A stretch of DNA of 64,000 nucleotides from a bacterium (GCA_963674965.2 CAXXFL010000001.1:672001-736000), one strand, 5' to 3'; shown: positions 4,379 through 19,288, counted from the first letter of the stretch. The notes: generated by a model not told the origin, from the sequence alone. Numbers and translations are program-made.

Positions 4379-5566
4379 ATGAGACCTATATCCAGACGAG
4401 ACGCGATGAAGATGGGAGGGGCCGTAGCGGGAGCCGCCGCGATTTCTCCGCGGGTGGCGGCGGCGAGAAAAGAGCTTGACGCGGACCTTTACATTTTTCC
4501 GCCCGAGGGGCAGGACGGGAAGCGGGTGATCGAGCCGCCCCCTCCGTCCATCGTCGAGGACGGCAAAATACGGCTCGGCCATTTCACCGAGCCCTGCCGA
4601 GACATGAACCTTCTCGAGGCAAAGCTTTTCAAGGGAGGCGAGTTGACCGTCTCGGGCCGTCCCCGGCTGCAGGAATGGGTCGGCTTCGGCATGGTCCATG
4701 ACGAATGGTACTTCGGCTCCATCATCATGGACTTCAAGCTCCTTACCATCGCCAGCGTCTACGCTATAAACCGCAAGACCGGCGACTACTTCTCCCATGG
4801 CGGCTACGACGGCGGCGGCGACTCGCGCGTGGCCAAAACCACCTGGAACGACTCGACCTATATGCGCAAGAAGAACTTTTATCTCGAGTACCAGCACGAC
4901 CTAGGCCGCGGCCGCCACCTGATCATGATCGATATCAAGGGATCGGGCAAGAAGCCGGCCCTCAAGGGCGAACTGACCTTGAGCGAGGACCTCGATCACT
5001 TTCAGCCCCAGGTCATCAGCATGCCGTCGCCTCCAAAAAATTACATGTACACCCACAAGGCCAAGATGCCAACCGAGGGATACGTGACGGTGGGCGACCA
5101 AAGGCTTGAATATGCGCCCGAGCGCAACTTCTGCAATATGGACGAGCATAAGAGCTTCCCTCCCATGCCCGCGAGTTGGACTTGGGGCACGGCCGGCGGC
5201 AAAAGCGACGACGGGACCTTCATGGCCCTGAACGTATCCGACAACTCGATGATGGACGCCGAAAAGTGGAACGAGAACTGCGTCTGGGTGGACGGCAAGA
5301 TTTCCCTTCTCGGTCCGGTCGAGTGGGAGCACGACCCTAAAAATACCATGAAGCCCTGGCGGGTCCGGGAAAGGACCGGCAGGATGGAGGCGGAGTTTAT
5401 ACCAGAGGGGGGCAAGACCTTGAACCTCAGCCCCATCGGGATCAAGTATTACCAGAAATGCGGCGTTTTCTCGGGCTTCCTGATTGGTGACGACGGGGTA
5501 AAGAGGACGTTCAAGGATTTCTACGGCCCGGCCGAGAACGGGGCCTTCTTCAAGAAGAACGGATGA
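4379..5566 (+). CDS. Tat-exported DUF2804-like protein
   Basis: SRRDAMK twin-arginine signal; YTHK, WTWG and NENCVWVDG..PW motifs typical of DUF2804. Confidence 0.7.
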   Translation: MRPISRRDAMKMGGAVAGAAAISPRVAAARKELDADLYIFPPEGQDGKRVIEPPPPSIVEDGKIRLGHFTEPCRDMNLLEAKLFKGGELTVSGRPRLQEWVGFGMVHDEWYFGSIIMDFKLLTIASVYAINRKTGDYFSHGGYDGGGDSRVAKTTWNDSTYMRKKNFYLEYQHDLGRGRHLIMIDIKGSGKKPALKGELTLSEDLDHFQPQVISMPSPPKNYMYTHKAKMPTEGYVTVGDQRLEYAPERNFCNMDEHKSFPPMPASWTWGTAGGKSDDGTFMALNVSDNSMMDAEKWNENCVWVDGKISLLGPVEWEHDPKNTMKPWRVRERTGRMEAEFIPEGGKTLNLSPIGIKYYQKCGVFSGFLIGDDGVKRTFKDFYGPAENGAFFKKNG

Positions 5567-12819: not shown

Positions 12820-14091
12820 TAAATTTCTCGCGCTATTAAAAATCTTTGGCTCCGCCCTATAGTTGCATTGGACAATTAAAGACCTTGAAATTCAACTAAT
12901 TTAATTACGAATCCTCGGGGGCGGGGGTTACGTCTTATAATTGGGACAATAATGGCAACATGGCGGGGAAGGCGGGCCCCGAGGGGAGTTGGGTTTACGA
13001 GTGGACATGTGATAATAAGATGGAGAGGGCCGAGAAGGACGGCGCCCTCGAGGCGGAGTACGCCTACGATTACAGGGGCGAGCGGATAAGGAAAACGACT
13101 CCGGGGGAGAGCGTGAATTACCTGGTGGACAACAACAACCGCGCGGGATACTCGCAGGTGGCCCGCGAGACGGACGGCTCCGGCGCGGAGCTTGCCGCCT
13201 ACGCCTTCGGCGACGACCTCATCAGCCAGACCCGCGCCGGGGCGGTCTCCTTCTTCCACTACGACGGCCTCGGCTCCACCCGCGCCCTCACCTCCATCGC
13301 CGGAGACGTCACCGACGCCGTCACCTACCTCGCCTTCGGCCAAATCCTCGCCAGGACCGGCACGACCGAATTCTCACATCTCTTCACCGGCGAGGCCTAC
13401 GATTTCAATATAGGGCATTATTATCTGAGGGCGAGGTTGTATGATCCGGTGAACGGGATATTCGCTTCTCTCGATCCTTTCGAAGGCGCCTATTCAATTC
13501 CACAGTCCCTGCAAAAATATCTATACGCTTTTGGCAATTCTGTGAATTTATCAGACCCAAGTGGAAATATGCCAAGCTTAATATCTCTAATCGTTGCTCT
13601 TTCAATAATTACTATACTCGCGACTTCATGTACGGGCACTAACTCGAAAATGTTATCCTCGCTGGGAATTGCATATATTCATGGCCAGAGAAATAGTAAA
13701 GAAGATCTATTAAAAGCTTTACAAGATGATAAAATAAAATATGTTATTTATGTTGGGCACGCGCATCCAGGTGATGCAGCTACTGGTACAGCATGGCTCG
13801 TTATGGGTACTTCAACGCCAGGGGAACGTGTTACACGTGCGGATATAAAAAGTGCATTGTCAAGAAGAACGTCAAAAATAAAAGGGTTTGCCATATTTGC
13901 ATGCGGATGTTATTGGGTAGTAAAACATCTTGAAAATTTTACTGACCCTTCCAACAATTTATTGACATGGCGAGCATATATTCATATTAGCTTTGGAAAA
14001 AAAGGGTCTGGATATTTCAGAGATCAACTTGTTAGTCTAAGCAAGAACGAGCAGCAAGACCCATTCAGAACTGCATCGAATAATTTGATTA

Positions 14092-15086
14092 GAGCACTTA
14101 ACGATTGACATGACGTATTGATTGTGGTATTCTCTTGTCATGGGAATATCATCTTCAGAGATTCGCGAGCGGGCGCTTGCCGCCTATCAGACCGGCGATT
14201 ACACGCAATTGGAGGTCGCCGCCATCTTTCGGGTCAGTACGCGCACCTTTCAACGCTGGCTCAAGCAGTACCGGGAACATGGCTCGACCGAGCCGGGTAA
14301 ACGTGGCCACCGCGCCGCCGTTTATCGCGGCGCCGACCTTAAGCGTTTGGACGGCCTTATTGCTCGCCACCCGGACGCGACTCTTGATGAGTTGCGCGAA
14401 CTCACGGGCAAGTCGTGTTCCCTCATGGCGGTGCAGCGCGCCGTTGCGCGCTTGGGGTACAGCCTAAAAAAAAACGCTTTCGGCCAGCGAACAAAACCGG
14501 CCTGACGTGATCCATTCCCGCCTGGAGTGGAGCGCGGGTCCGATGCTCGGCGATGCTCGGCGGCTGGTATTCATCGACGAGTCTGGCGCCAAGACCAACA
14601 TGACCCGCCACCGCGGGCGGGGCCGCCGGGGCCAGAGAGTCCGTGATCACGCCCCCCATGGTCATTGGCATACCACGACGATGATCGGCTCGATTCGTTT
14701 TGACGGGCAGGTGAGTTGCATGGCGATCGAGGGTTCCGCGAACCGTGAGGTTTTTCGGTCTTACGTCAGGCACATCCTTGGCCCGACCTTGCGGCCGGGC
14801 GACGTGGTGGTCGCCGATAATCTCTCGGTGCACAAGGACGCCCAAAGTCGGGAGATTATCGAGGCCCTCGGCGCCCGCTTGGTGTTCCTGCCTCCGTACA
14901 GTCCCGATTTCAATCCGATCGAAAAGATGTGGAGCAAGGTGAAGAATCATTTACGCTCCGCCAAGGCGCGAACGCATCCTCGATTAATCGCGGCAATAAG
15001 CGAGGCATTATCTTCCATTACGGCCAGCGATGCTAAGGGCTATTTTTTTTCGTGCGGTTATACGACATTACAAACGTGAAGTGCTC
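14092..15086 (+). mobile_element. IS630-family insertion sequence
   Basis: IRs GAGCACTTAACGATTG / GAGCACTTCACGTTTG (14/16); TA duplicated at 14090-14091 and 15087-15088. Confidence 0.95.
14140..15079 (+). CDS. IS630 transposase split over two frames at an A9 run
   Basis: HTH N-terminal ORF, then LVFIDESG, VADNLSVH and LPPYSPDFNPIE; the frames join at A9 (14466-14474) to give KKTLSASEQNRPDV. Confidence 0.92.
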
Positions 15087-15206: not shown

Positions 15207-15791
15207 ATGATGGCGAAGGAAAAGAAAATAAGTTTACTTGATATATACTTTTCATTGAAGTTCATAATAATTATATACGCTATTATAGAAATATTTAAGA
15301 CAATTGCAATATCACTATCATATGCGACATGGCCAAAAGCTTCTAGCCATATAGGTTCATTATTTATTTGGCTACTGGCAAATATGGATTTTTTTACATT
15401 GTTTCCTTTAAATAGGATAGGGGTATTAATATCATTAAAACATCAATTATTTCTATCACTCATAATAATATTTATATTTTATTATCGTTATTATTTATTG
15501 GAATTGGAAGTTGAAATTAAAAAAATAAAGTATAACTCAATGATAATTAATATTTTTTATTTATCAATAATGGTCATTTTTATTATATATTATAACCAGG
15601 GTCTATTTACATACTTTCCTTTTAAAGACAATAGCTTTGGAAGTTATTTGCGAAAATACACTGAGATTATTACAGAAGGAAAGCCTCATTATGATAATAT
15701 TTTCCTTTCAGTATCGCTTATATTATTTACAACAATGGTATCTTCAGCACTCTATTATGTAAATAAAATATTAAAAACTAAAAAGCCGTAA
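15207..15791 (+). CDS. AT-rich multi-TM membrane protein, putative immunity protein
   Basis: AGGAGGAG RBS; starts 14 nt after the reconstructed Rhs stop; about 4-5 hydrophobic helices. Confidence 0.75.
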   Translation: MMAKEKKISLLDIYFSLKFIIIIYAIIEIFKTIAISLSYATWPKASSHIGSLFIWLLANMDFFTLFPLNRIGVLISLKHQLFLSLIIIFIFYYRYYLLELEVEIKKIKYNSMIINIFYLSIMVIFIIYYNQGLFTYFPFKDNSFGSYLRKYTEIITEGKPHYDNIFLSVSLILFTTMVSSALYYVNKILKTKKP

Positions 15792-15885: not shown

Positions 15886-18291
15886 TTGGGGAGGAAGGTG
15901 GCCGAGGTGGACCAGGCGGGCGTGAGGACCGAGTTCCTTTACGACGAGGCGGGTAGCCTCATCGGCGTGGACGACGCCGAGGGGGGAGAGACCCGCTATG
16001 TATATGACGCGGGCGGGGACCTGCTCTCGATCGTCGATCCCAACGGGCACGTTACCTCCTTTACTTACGACGAGCTTGGCCGCAAGACCTCGCGGACCCT
16101 GCCCGAGGGCATGGCCGAGACGTGGGAATACCGGGACTGCTGCATGGCCTCGTCCCATACCGACTTCAACGGCCGGACCGTCATTTACGAGTTCGACGAG
16201 ATGAAGCGCGAGACCCTCCGGACCTATCCGGACGGCAAGACCATCGGCCGCCAATACAACGGCCGGGGCCAGCTCGTCCGCGTGATTTATATTGGCTACG
16301 AGTTCGGCGCGGGCGAGCCGTATCGGGACCGCGTCTTCACCTACGACGACGTCACCGGGCAGCTCCTCCGCGACGACAAGGAGGACGGGCAGTATATCGC
16401 CTATAAGTACGATATCGCCGGGGCCCTTATCGAGACGGCCTACTCGGGCGGGCACGTGGTGACCTACGCCCACGACGCGCTCGGCCGCCTCGCGACCGTG
16501 ACCGACGACAACGGAATCACGCAGTATGCCTACGACGCGGTGGGCAACCGAAAGAGCATGGCCTATCCGAACGGGACGCTGGCCACATACGAGTTCGACG
16601 AGTTGAACCGCCTGACCTACCTCGAGAACTCGGGGCCGGGCGGGCTGATATCGAGCTACGAGTACACGCTTGGCCCGGCGGGGAACCGGACGGGGATCAT
16701 CGAGCGCTACCGCGAGCCGAAGGAGGCGGAGGGCGACACGGCCGAGCGGCCGGTGATCGAGGACGAGTGCGCCTACGAGTATGACGACCTGTATCGGCTC
16801 ACCCGCGAGGCGCGGACCTCCCCCGAGCCCGACCGCACCTACTGGATCGAGTATGACTACGACGCCTTCGGGAACCGCCTCGAGATGAACGCGGGCGGCC
16901 TGGTCACTGCCTACGACTACGACGCGAACGACAGGCTCCTCACCGAGTCAGCGGCCTCGGGAGTCACGTCGTACGCGTGGGACGATAACGGCAACATGGC
17001 CGGCAAGACCGGCCCATCGGAAACCTGGGCCTACGAATGGGACCTCGAGAACAAGATGGCCCGCGCCGACAAGGACGCCGCCCTCGCCGCCGCCTACGCC
17101 TACGACTTCCGCGGCGAGCGCATATACAAGCGGACGCCCGACGGCGCCACCCGCTTCCTCATCGACAACAACAACCAGACCGGCTACTCCCAAGCCCTCC
17201 GCGAAACCGACTCGGAGCAAGTTGAAGAAGTGGCTTATACATTTGGAGACGATCTGATCAGTCAGGAAAAGGCCGCGGTCTCGTTCTTCCATTACGACGG
17301 CCTGGGGTCATCACGGGCGCTTTCCTCCAATTCGGGTACTACCACAAACGCGTTCTCCTATCTTGCTTTCGGGTCGGTTTTATCCGCTACCGACCAGACA
17401 ATTACTTCTCATCTTTTCACGGGAGACGCCTATGACTTTAATCTTAGATATTATTATCTAAGAGCCAGGCTTTACGACCCCGTTTCGGGAAGATTTGTAT
17501 CACACGATAAATATGGTGGCAGAGTATTCGAGCCAAAAAGCATACATAAATATATTTATACATATAACAGCCCAGAGAATTACACGGACCCATCAGGATA
17601 TTTTACTATATATGAAATAATGATTGCTATTGCGGTGATAACTATTTTAATTATAAGCGCCGTTTCATTGTTTTTTGGTGGGGAAGATTACGATTGTCCA
17701 TCTGGTCTTTGGGCAGGTGTAGATGCACATGTTGATGCCACGTTTCAATTAGGACCTATGGGGTTGCCTCTTGGAGCGGTTGGCGGTGCCATTATCAGTT
17801 GTGTAGGCATGCGGGCTTATTCAATTCATAAAGAAAGGCCCATATGCCCATTACTCATTGCCTGTGGCAATACTCCTGTAGGAATAGGAGCGGAAATAGG
17901 GATGAATTTAGTTGGTGCTTACATAGTCGGCGCTCATGATATTGATGAATTATCTGGATTATCAGCAAATCTCAGTTTTTCCGCAAGCCCTGGTGTAGCG
18001 GGGCCGGGACCATCCTTAAGCGCTTCCTGGGGCGAAGGCTGTAATGTTGTCATCACGGCGGGGCTTTCAGTTAGCGCGGGTGATATGCTAGCTCTCCAAG
18101 GCTGCTCTGCCTATGTTGATGAGAGGCTATGCAGATGGGAACCTTCATTAATGGGCAAAGCCTATGACAGGATGGCTGATTTCGTTTCATGTGCCACAAG
18201 TTCATGCCTTTTTGATAAGCTTTCATTTTATTCTTCAGGCGGGATGTATAGCCACTGTGACTATCATCCTGATCTTTGTGGTACGCATTAA
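15886..18291 (+). CDS. 5'-truncated (orphan) Rhs/YD-repeat protein with a Cys/Gly-rich C-terminal domain
   Basis: Numerous YD repeats, Rhs core, PENYTDPSG; begins mid-repeat with no RBS; GC drops sharply near the core end. Confidence 0.9.
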   Translation: MGRKVAEVDQAGVRTEFLYDEAGSLIGVDDAEGGETRYVYDAGGDLLSIVDPNGHVTSFTYDELGRKTSRTLPEGMAETWEYRDCCMASSHTDFNGRTVIYEFDEMKRETLRTYPDGKTIGRQYNGRGQLVRVIYIGYEFGAGEPYRDRVFTYDDVTGQLLRDDKEDGQYIAYKYDIAGALIETAYSGGHVVTYAHDALGRLATVTDDNGITQYAYDAVGNRKSMAYPNGTLATYEFDELNRLTYLENSGPGGLISSYEYTLGPAGNRTGIIERYREPKEAEGDTAERPVIEDECAYEYDDLYRLTREARTSPEPDRTYWIEYDYDAFGNRLEMNAGGLVTAYDYDANDRLLTESAASGVTSYAWDDNGNMAGKTGPSETWAYEWDLENKMARADKDAALAAAYAYDFRGERIYKRTPDGATRFLIDNNNQTGYSQALRETDSEQVEEVAYTFGDDLISQEKAAVSFFHYDGLGSSRALSSNSGTTTNAFSYLAFGSVLSATDQTITSHLFTGDAYDFNLRYYYLRARLYDPVSGRFVSHDKYGGRVFEPKSIHKYIYTYNSPENYTDPSGYFTIYEIMIAIAVITILIISAVSLFFGGEDYDCPSGLWAGVDAHVDATFQLGPMGLPLGAVGGAIISCVGMRAYSIHKERPICPLLIACGNTPVGIGAEIGMNLVGAYIVGAHDIDELSGLSANLSFSASPGVAGPGPSLSASWGEGCNVVITAGLSVSAGDMLALQGCSAYVDERLCRWEPSLMGKAYDRMADFVSCATSSCLFDKLSFYSSGGMYSHCDYHPDLCGTH

Positions 18292-18307
18292 AGAGGGAGA
18301 GTATAAG

Positions 18308-19180
18308 ATGATAAAAAAAATTGCCGCCATTTGCTTTCTATTTCTTTTTGTTATTGGTTGCAAAACAAATATCAACAAGCCCAAAAAGGAGCCAGAGATG
18401 GTTGAAATTCCAGCCGGAGAATACCATGTTGGCGCGTCCTTAATATCAATAATGAAAAATTGCAATGATGGCATGGATAATATATTAAAAATGAAAAGTG
18501 GATACTTAAATAAGCTTGTTTGTCGCCCAGATATATTTAAGATCGATTCTCCCGAAATAAAAGTAGACGCCGAATGTTATTTTATCGATAAGTATGAAGT
18601 TACAAGGAAGCAATATAAAGAATGTATTAGTGATGGTAAATGTGAATTTAATGGTGATAGCACGGAATTAGATTCAGATTTGCCTATGACGAATATCGAT
18701 TGGAAGCAGGCAAATACATATTGCATTTGGAGAGGAGCAAGACTGCCGACTGAGATTGAATGGGAAATTGCAGCAAGAGGGAAGACAAAGACTTTTTATC
18801 CGTGGGGAGATGATTTTTCTTGTGAAAAGGCGAGGTCTATGTATTGCCATGAAGAGATCGAACCAGGAAAAAGGGTTGCCCAAAAAGGTGGCTCCAACGT
18901 TTTTGATGAAAGTGAATTTGGAGTGATGGACATGTCAGGTAACGTGCAGGAATTTACTTCTAATAGATATTGTAAAAGAGATGAAAAAGAGAGAGAATCA
19001 GGATATTTCTGTCAATCATATGGATCTTATGTATCTATTAGAGGCTCATTTTATAACGGATTGCCTCATCAATCACTTGTGAGAAGAAGCATCGTTAAAA
19101 TTAAAAGTAATAATTCATTCACAGGATTCAGATGCGCAAGAAGCTGTGATGAAAAAGATAATGTGAAAAATAAAAATTGA
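18308..19180 (+). CDS. FGE-sulfatase (SUMF1/C-type-lectin fold) lipoprotein, putative immunity protein
   Basis: Lipobox FVIGC; FIDKYEVT, RLPTEIEWEIAARG, YPWG, DMSGNVQE and GFRCA motifs; AT-rich; 16 nt after the Rhs stop. Confidence 0.88.
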   Translation: MIKKIAAICFLFLFVIGCKTNINKPKKEPEMVEIPAGEYHVGASLISIMKNCNDGMDNILKMKSGYLNKLVCRPDIFKIDSPEIKVDAECYFIDKYEVTRKQYKECISDGKCEFNGDSTELDSDLPMTNIDWKQANTYCIWRGARLPTEIEWEIAARGKTKTFYPWGDDFSCEKARSMYCHEEIEPGKRVAQKGGSNVFDESEFGVMDMSGNVQEFTSNRYCKRDEKERESGYFCQSYGSYVSIRGSFYNGLPHQSLVRRSIVKIKSNNSFTGFRCARSCDEKDNVKNKN

Positions 19181-19288
19181 TGGTCAGATATATATAAACA
19201 ACGGGTAACTCACACATAGTCGAACTACACGATACGGGTCGCCGAAGACCGAGGATTAATTTAGAGCAAAAACATTAGGGGCTAAGGA

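Follow-up and report, generated by a model that had tools for sequence, protein, structure and literature searches.

The C-terminal toxin of an orphan rhs cassette in a bacterial genome (GCA_963674965.2, CAXXFL010000001.1:672001-736000, a stretch of 64,000 nucleotides that is referred to here as the window) is predicted to begin, directly after the Rhs autocleavage site, with a hydrophobic helix resembling the N-terminal end of a mature type IV pilin. This helix is most likely not a true pilin and would need no pilus machinery; released toxins of the Rhs clade to which the cassette belongs typically have a hydrophobic helix as their first module. On balance, we lean toward the view that it serves a two-part Rhs toxin as its membrane-insertion or entry helix, opened by a capping box and chaperoned by the Rhs shell as described for Tse5 (PA2684), a pore-forming toxin of Pseudomonas aeruginosa. 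An original prediction made from the window sequence had proposed that Rhs autoproteolysis would release a payload resembling a processed pilin or pseudopilin, which could anchor in a membrane, be built into or jam a type IV pilus (T4P) or type II secretion system (T2SS) pseudopilus, or be displayed by one.

The open reading frame (ORF) concerned (15886-18291, plus strand) has TTG as its first possible start codon and encodes 801 residues, with RHS/YD repeats that place it in the Rhs family (PF05593, E 9e-41; TIGR01643, E 2.2e-33). Its core ends in SPENYTDPSGY, where DPSGY is encoded by GAC CCA TCA GGA TAT at 17587-17601 and is followed in frame by FTIYEIMIAIAVITILIISAVSLFF, beginning with Phe573 (TTT, 17602-17604) and having Glu as residue 577, in agreement with the coordinates and sequence of the original prediction. 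The identification of this junction as an Rhs autocleavage site also holds up: TIGR03696 matches the core above its cut-off, the motif PxxxxDPxG[aromatic] is complete, and Arg528 (17467-17469), Asp541 (17506-17508) and Asp568 (17587-17589) occupy the Arg/Asp/Asp autoprotease positions, from which proteolytic activity is predicted. Both Asp541 and Asp568 are invariant across a 12-sequence alignment of the clade (A3), and a teneurin-like protein likewise has an Arg 13 residues ahead of the first Asp (PMC13018210). In Photorhabdus Rhs1, Leu1342 is the last residue of the shell and Ala1343 the first of the toxin, the catalytic residue being Asp1338 (PMC8636562); in RhsA, the density ends at Trp1350 of PxxxxDPxG[W/L/F], with Asp1346 as the catalytic position (PMC8765631); and in Tse5, the cleaved bond is Leu1168|Ile1169, with Asp1164 (PMC10684867). 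Since these published bonds lie after the residue next to DPxG, the scissile bond falls four residues past the catalytic Asp, which in the window ORF corresponds to Tyr572|Phe573 and would make Phe573 the new N-terminus after cleavage.

This predicted neo-N-terminus carries the pilin signature, with F1, T2, E5 and about 20 hydrophobic residues, in accordance with the resemblance originally proposed. To place the likeness against a background, a hidden Markov model (HMM) was made from residues 1-24 of 10 pilins of the same genome, taken from its 11 genome-wide TIGR02532 matches above cut-off (17.4-42.2 bits), among which there is no Rhs C-terminus. The background comprised 5,947 transmembrane (TM)-like segments from six-frame ORFs of at least 100 residues. 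The training pilins scored 29.3-44.4 bits. Next came a paralogous Rhs C-terminus (12.9), an unrelated segment (11.9, aligned over model positions 9-22 only) and the helix of the window, whose alignment begins at model position 1 (11.7; 12.7 in fixed register). Only four non-training segments reached at least 10 bits, two of them being Rhs C-termini. All nine sub-threshold NCBIfam matches of the 41-mer are to pilin or pseudopilin families and are aligned from the Phe. Six-frame ORFs with a minimum length of 150 residues, 4.22 million residues in total, contain the hexamer F-[ST]-[LIVM]-x-E-[LIVM] 62 times against 41.5 expected, with most copies in soluble contexts. The HMM ranking and the context of the hexamer indicate that the pilin resemblance is real and well above the generic-TM background.

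By the curated models, the helix is similar to pilins but not a member of the family. It scores 10.7 bits with PF07963 (cut-off 21.2) and 11.3 bits with TIGR02532 (cut-off 16.3), in both cases in register from the Phe. A prepilin leader with Gly at -1 is absent, the helix being preceded by 572 residues of Rhs core with Tyr at -1 and Gly at -2 (the latter in 12/12 clade members), and the hydrophobic stretch stops at a Gly-Gly pair (26-27) with no amphipathic continuation. As originally proposed, the payload would resemble a processed pilin; membership among pilins is contradicted by the scores and by the position of the Gly.

One explanation of the likeness is true pilin mimicry, in which autoproteolysis would yield a mature pilin or pseudopilin N-terminus independently of prepilin peptidase, and the T4P or T2SS platform of the target or the producer would engage the toxin, pulling it out of the membrane, building it into a filament or being jammed by it. 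Several observations are in its favor, including the exact coincidence of F1, T2, E5 and the hydrophobic stretch with the predicted neo-N-terminus, seen in the window and again in two paralogous cassettes, the exclusively pilin-type NCBIfam matches, the rank of the helix among the top three non-pilin segments, and the presence of pilins and one prepilin peptidase (Peptidase_A24) in the same genome. In addition, one relative (P0004), by reading, shares with pilin helices a G14 and a Pro around position 22-23, and the Cys-rich domain and lipoprotein immunity candidate of the window would fit a periplasm-facing, pilin-like topology.

Of the 33 TIGR03696 matches in the source genome, 32 exceed the cut-off. 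The 31 that were examined exclude C1:692803, which is sub-threshold, and C2:17196, where the match is truncated and the motif is absent. The six lowest-scoring core ends (54.8-60 bits) form one clade, which consists of a full-length parent protein (P0005), both orphans of the window and three orphans on contig 6, and every one of the six runs straight into a hydrophobic helix. Their starts, with fixed-register scores from the pilin HMM, are FTIYEIM (12.7 bits), MPSLISLIV (8.0), FTLMELL (13.9), FNLIKLA (4.8), FTLFELA (7.0) and SLIEIMT (5.0), and the FTLMELL and FTLFELA cassettes share the F-T-x-x-E register of the window helix. The pilin HMM gave at most 0.4 bits or no match for the other 25 core ends. 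Outside this genome, a hydrophobic helix start was found in five of six clade relatives (P0002/L006, P0004, L005, L007 and L008, the exception being L004); these six came from core-based or toxin-domain searches, and the members from the core scan start with EWTLASK (L007), GIIDFLV (L008) and FSLVEMSAAES (L004).

While the hydrophobic helix recurs, the pilin-specific residues are not conserved in the same way, and the conservation of F1 and E5 that was to be checked across homologs fails in its strict form. In the 12-member alignment, which includes one sequence (L059) found via a motif-requiring pattern and is biased to that extent, residue 5 past the cleavage site is Glu in 5/12, Lys in 2/12 and another residue in 5/12; in the last group, a one-residue offset moves the aligned S/T-L-I-E core toward or away from DxxG. 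A near-invariant Glu5 is thus not found: position 5 is Lys in P0002, which is the sole detectable homolog of the window toxin and also has V1, Asp in P0004 and Met in L005, and the change from Glu to Lys is also seen in one paralogous cassette of the source genome. The proposed scoring of homologous Rhs starts with pilin models had a similar outcome, since at E up to 10 TIGR02532 matched 3/12 clade members (best E 0.064) and PF07963 matched 4/12 (best E 0.014), and a precomputed PF07963 match was present in none of 28 related Rhs proteins. The original prediction had named a lack of F1/E5 conservation as evidence against itself, and the K5 homolog and the register shifts largely supply that evidence with regard to pilus incorporation.

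Linkage to pilus genes points the same way. No pilus or T2SS gene was found among the 35 largest ORFs of the window that were scanned, nor any pil/gsp gene among the neighbors of P0005. On contig 6, some 8-10 kb separate the orphan array from a cluster with PilY1 and minor pilins, with a GspG-like gene about 2 kb beyond the cluster, and a consistent association was rejected, as such genes are near only one of the three clade loci. Separately, a 163-residue protein on contig 6 (L001:12596-13087, minus strand) with a T2SS protein G domain (PF08334, E 1.1e-31) lacks a G-F-T-L-I-E motif at its N-terminus, where a long basic leader precedes a Leu-rich helix.

Taken with the sub-cut-off scores, the helix end at Gly-Gly and the nuclease-type C-termini that share the same start (see below), these results make mimicry an improbable explanation, and the toxin being built into, jamming or displayed by a pilus or pseudopilus is not borne out. 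A version confined to this clade, in which a toxin that has entered the inner membrane in pilin topology is engaged by the T4P/T2SS platform of the target, either poisoning the machine or positioning the toxin, is held to be just as improbable; K5 and shifted-register variants would then be members with lost or changed dependence. That the subset with F1, T2 and E5 represents true mimics is equally improbable, although its signature is kept across three diverged paralogous helices. Among the outcomes originally listed, membrane anchoring is the likeliest.

Searches for the junction itself returned few sequences. A word-indexed search with a junction query gave two proteins among 79 candidates; such searches are shallow, and absence from them carries little weight. 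A junction-profile scan gave one locus in genome contigs and four in metagenome contigs. The collection contains 13 species genomes from the phylum of the source genome, with a core match in 4/13 and the DNA pattern DPxGxF[ST]hxE in the source genome only; class and phylum are represented by 13 species genomes each, and the lineage is therefore sparsely sampled. In 401 genomes of another phylum, the same pattern gave 19 matches against one for a reversed control, and this enrichment was rejected as evidence for an Rhs feature because only two of the 19 are true Rhs junctions, namely L041 (the same as L004) and L059. Six others are the C-termini of an unrelated family of about 340 residues (L045, L048, L049, L050, L052 and L053) that reads ...DP[KR]GWFS[LI]xE..., and most of the remainder are short or non-Rhs frames.

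The preferred reading, a membrane-insertion or entry helix, is supported by a wider sample of 59 distinct Rhs C-terminal starts collected from the source genome, core-based loci and profile-search matches, from which L059, duplicates and source-genome proteins that had already been counted were excluded. A hydrophobic 19-mer beginning within residues 1-4 is present in 24/59, and the acidic residues at positions 2-12 of those 24 are concentrated near the start (three at position 4, five at position 5, one at position 8). With positions taken as equivalent, 8/9 acidic residues at positions 4-5 correspond to a binomial P of 9e-6, and counting by estimated independent lineages gives 5/6 with P 1e-3. 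Among the same 24, Lys is at position 5 in two and Phe at position 1 in five. By reading, most have a Ser or Thr three residues ahead of the acid (T2/E5, S2/E5, S1/E4), and this S/T-x-x-E opening is what we take to be the classical helix capping box. A hydrophobic helix at a free N-terminus combined with a capping box would produce the F-T-L-I-E-L look with or without a pilus machine.

The cargo behind such starts bears further on topology. F/M-S-x-x-E starts precede toxins that act in the cytoplasm, as in L004 (CdiA-CT RNase A, 73.6 bits), and P0012 (MSSIEM...) carries Colicin-DNase and WHH domains, while P0020 (FSMGEL...) carries the pre-toxin HINT domain PT-HINT; the C-terminus of P0005 has weak PT-TG and EndoU matches. 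A pilin topology places the head in the periplasm and would be useless for nuclease-type toxins, whereas a membrane-entry function fits both the nuclease cargo and the Cys-rich toxin of the window. As a separate observation, several starts from other Rhs clades (L010, L012, L016, P0018 and P0032) are hydrophobic and glycine-zipper-like, for example SFMGFFSRIFGAIGAAIGAVIGGIIGG and NPIIGAIIGAIIGGIAGGII, and are reminiscent of membrane-depolarizing glycine-zipper toxins.

In the window, the hydrophobic run of FTIYEIMIAIAVITILIISAVSLFF ends at F597 and gives way to GGEDYDC and a Gly- and Cys-rich domain that is probably periplasm-facing. This domain has no match in Pfam, NCBIfam or PADLOC, a PDB sequence search returned none at E up to 1, and ESM Atlas gave no usable match. 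An exhaustive search of the 229-residue toxin against 1.84 billion representatives gave a single match, P0002 (E 8.7e-20, 40% identity), itself an Rhs orphan with the junction DPTGL|VSLMKLAMGFVIG (VSLMKL). The motif C-x-x-G-x-W-x-G is common to the window toxin, P0002, L005 and P0004, and the last two (EYLLMNVL and WTVIDTMM, respectively) are more distant relatives of the toxin. The sequence of the C-terminus that would be released contains one clear TM helix along with Gly-rich stretches.

These elements suggest the following course of events. After recombination of the cassette into the parent gene, the aspartyl protease of the shell would cut after DPSGY, so that the toxin begins at Phe573, and the shell would carry an integral-membrane or membrane-crossing toxin in soluble form. 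Once released, the N-terminal helix would partition into the cytoplasmic membrane of the target cell, where it may anchor a periplasm-facing Cys-rich toxin, as in the window, or start the translocation of a nuclease, as in other clade members. The F-T-x-x-E start would then be a capping box one turn from the free alpha-amino group, a convergent way of burying a free N-terminus in lipid.

A role on the producer side, in which the helix is a packing or anchor element inside the Rhs shell or keeps the toxin unfolded for Sec export, is also conceivable. Parts of the cleaved RhsA toxin are ordered inside the cocoon, with an anchor helix lining its inner wall (PMC8765631), and the confinement of the helix to one Rhs core clade in the source genome could reflect co-adaptation with the shell. 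However, the RhsA anchor helix belongs to the N-terminal fragment and not to the toxin, the P1' to P6' residues differ widely among related shells, the helices (about 20-25 residues) are long and hydrophobic enough to span a bilayer, and the glycine-zipper-like starts of other clades resemble membrane-active toxins, which together make this role unlikely. Descent from a real pilin, with the resemblance being a relic without present role of a pilin or pseudopilin gene whose 5' end was taken up by the cassette, would be in keeping with the assembly of Rhs C-termini by recombination and with the foreign composition of the cassette, but it is very improbable. The only match in the exhaustive search of the window toxin is an Rhs orphan and no pilin-type homolog was found there; a shallow word-indexed search with P0007, the best pilin-like paralog, recovered only P0007 itself among 37 candidates (proteins of 123-392 residues); and neither a Gly at -1 nor any remnant of a leader is present, with Gly-Gly in place of the amphipathic second half of the pilin helix.

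Several observations weigh against the preferred reading of a membrane-entry helix. The three paralogous cassettes keep F1, T2, [IL]3, E5 and [IL]6 in helices that otherwise differ from one another, which suggests selection on exactly the pilin signature positions, beyond the needs of a plain anchor. By reading of the listed matches, the hexamer is joined to a hydrophobic 12-mer almost exclusively in pilins and in three Rhs C-termini. In L004 and L059, an FxLxE start is followed by an amphipathic instead of a TM stretch, so that motif and hydrophobic helix are separable. The wider sample is partly biased, as P0008-P0032 were retrieved by a profile that includes the helix columns. An AlphaFold2 model of the toxin from a four-sequence alignment shows a helix at residues 4-25 only and, with a mean predicted local distance difference test score of 30.7, is too low in confidence for use. 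Furthermore, the immunity candidate of the window would be a periplasmic lipoprotein, unlike the candidates beside homologous toxins, which are polytopic membrane proteins (271 residues at L006; 99 and 129 residues at L005), and the window copy is an orphan fragment that may never be expressed.

Tse5 is the closest described parallel. Its Rhs shell cuts itself after DPxG[L], holds a membrane C-terminus inside and "functions as a chaperone" for an integral-membrane toxin that is delivered to the target membrane (PMC10684867). The differences are that Tse5 is linked with a type VI secretion system (T6SS) and VgrG, whereas the family studied here has a signal-anchor and Ig-like domains with no Pfam PAAR or VgrG match; that family models and the PDB revealed no sequence relation between Tse5 and the window toxin; and that the available text on Tse5 describes no pilin-like start of its C-terminus (PMC10684867). 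The likeness to pilins and pseudopilins lies in F1, T2, the hydrophobic residue 3, E5 and the length of the hydrophobic stretch. It differs in origin, in that Rhs aspartyl autoproteolysis would make the N-terminus in the window while prepilin peptidase makes that of a pilin, and in the missing leader and Gly -1, the sub-cut-off scores, the unconserved E5 and the stop at Gly-Gly.

Bipartite delivery is known from CdiA-CT toxins, whose N-terminal domains mediate entry into the cytoplasm (PMC11630599), so that a first module deals with the inner membrane of the target and a second is the variable toxin; those entry domains are folded, hijack specific membrane proteins and are released by a non-Rhs route, whereas the window has a single hydrophobic helix. 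The prePAAR TM domains are also joined to Rhs effectors and have been implicated in the crossing of the target inner membrane by the toxin (bioRxiv 10.1101/2025.10.28.685041), but these domains lie at the head of the entire protein and require Eag chaperones. In the window, it is the cleaved toxin that opens with the helix, and the parent P0005 shows just one signal-anchor at its N-terminus and lacks a PAAR match in Pfam. A Sec-type teneurin-like YD protein, whose C-terminal domain inhibited growth only when provided with a secretion signal, resembles the present family in being large and Sec-type, in its Ig-like domains and Arg/Asp/Asp autoprotease, and in ending with a C-terminal domain that is small and polymorphic; the available text describes no pilin-like start for it (PMC13018210), and the likeness is one of general architecture. 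For a Bdellovibrio YD-repeat protein, a pilin-like fold has been proposed in the N-terminal part, and RHS genes lie near pilus genes (PMC3818213), which is a different feature from a helix after the cleavage site. No description of a pilin-like start of an Rhs toxin was found in the literature on Rhs or polymorphic toxins and pilins or membrane insertion, as far as its available text extends, and the original statement that no such system was known is upheld within that range.

The features of the locus are collected in Table 1.

Table 1. Coordinates, strand and supporting evidence of the rhs cassettes and adjacent features in the window
Feature	Position	Strand	Evidence
Orphan A, second Rhs fragment of the same clade	12960..14108	+	TIGR03696 54.9 bits; pilin HMM 8.0 bits
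IS630-family transposase in two frames, between orphan A and the next gene	14122..15079	+	HTH_Tnp_IS630, other HTH; DDE_3 E 1.6e-36
Very AT-rich (GC about 0.21-0.26) polytopic membrane protein, 194 residues	15207..15791	+	Sequence and composition; without family match
N-terminally truncated Rhs core fragment of the orphan rhs cassette	15886..17601	+	PF05593 E 9e-41, 11 stretches
Low-GC cassette: core end, helix, toxin and candidate immunity gene	17300..19250	.	GC 0.33-0.50 vs about 0.65 in core
Rhs-associated core (aspartyl autoprotease plug), residues 492-571	17359..17598	+	TIGR03696 49.1 bits vs cut-off 32.5
PxxxxDPxG[Y] autocleavage motif, PENYTDPSGY	17572..17601	+	Sequence; predicted scissile bond 17601/17602
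Pilin-like hydrophobic helix FTIYEIMIAIAVITILIISAVSLFF, predicted neo-N-terminus of the released toxin	17602..17676	+	PF07963 and TIGR02532, sub-threshold
Gly-/Cys-rich toxin domain (about 204 residues, 11 Cys) and stop codon	17677..18291	+	No family match
Candidate immunity gene, lipoprotein with FGE-sulfatase (SUMF1-like) domain	18308..19180	+	PF03781 E 3e-35

Residue 1 of the window ORF aligns to residue 2150 of P0005, a main Rhs protein of 2,900 residues encoded on another contig; over P0005 residues 2150-2708 the cores are 66% identical overall, and the window core is 89% identical to that of the orphan P0003. As the ORF starts within the core, it is an orphan without a secretion or delivery domain. 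The cassette belongs to the Sec-type giant Rhs family of the source genome, with P0005 as the full-length parent, whose domains are a signal-anchor-like N-terminus, Transglut_core, the Ig-like Big_7, DUF6531 and RHS repeats. No Pfam match to PAAR or VgrG was obtained in P0005 and six neighboring ORFs (locus L002), and T6SS sheath genes are present in the genome but on another contig.

The variable toxin and the gene downstream are compositionally distinct from the core, as is typical of an Rhs cassette, and the gene probably provides immunity. This gene starts 17 nt past the toxin stop, within the low-GC block of the toxin, and its product has an N-terminus, MIKKIAAICFLFLFVIGC, that reads by eye as a lipobox; it is accordingly put forward as the putative immunity protein of the window toxin. 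PADLOC had no match for either immunity candidate or for the C-terminus of orphan A. In orphan A, DPSGN (13554-13568) is followed by MPSLISLIVALSIITILATSC, and the polytopic membrane protein at 15207-15791 is probably its immunity protein, whose gene would have been split off by the insertion sequence (IS).

Further observations concern the architecture of these cassettes. In orphan A (13554-13631), a Met stands directly after DPSGN, and MPSLISLIVALSIITILATSC is similar to the signal peptide of a lipoprotein, although its lipobox (LATSC) is loose and a basic n-region is missing. A whole ORF may have been captured here, or the Met may be an internal start. The IS630 transposase is split into an HTH part (14122-14505) and a DDE_3 part (14507-15079) and may be a frameshift-dependent gene or a broken copy. 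The orphans at L001:3475-5225 (minus strand) and at 15886 in the window begin at the same point of the core, ...RKVAEVDQAGVRTEF, near parent residue 2150, and both stand behind an AT-rich immunity-like gene of a preceding cassette; the shared start point in two loci suggests one common mechanism of cassette formation. The orphan array on contig 6 is broken up by IS66-type and other transposase genes. Genes of DUF2804 lie a few kb from both orphan Rhs loci (window 4379-5566, E 7.6e-41; L001:13474-14628, E 2.7e-87), a proximity that may be coincidental or part of a duplicated segment.

At the scale of the genome, two long arrays of Rhs orphans, on C2 (about 79-100 kb) and C6 (about 735-750 kb), stand behind Rhs genes of 3,339 and 3,260 residues, and at least eight C-terminal starts are identical between them, for example DSNGM|QYGGPGY and DGDGR|ESEFVSG. 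This identity suggests that a segment was duplicated recently or that the assembly contains a repeat.

How Rhs toxins get out of the shell and reach or cross the inner membrane of the target has been described as unresolved (bioRxiv 10.1101/2025.10.28.685041). The clade described here has neither a Pfam PAAR match nor a visible N-terminal TM domain of the prePAAR type, and carries a helix at the start of the cleaved toxin instead. If the helix acts only as a membrane anchor, the finding would be a modest extension of the Tse5 paradigm. The fact that it fronts both membrane- or periplasm-type and nuclease-type toxins would point to a simple delivery principle, a self-inserting neo-N-terminus, and the charged residue one turn from that terminus, together with the near-pilin subset, may offer a handle on how convergent biophysics can be told apart from the hijacking of pili.

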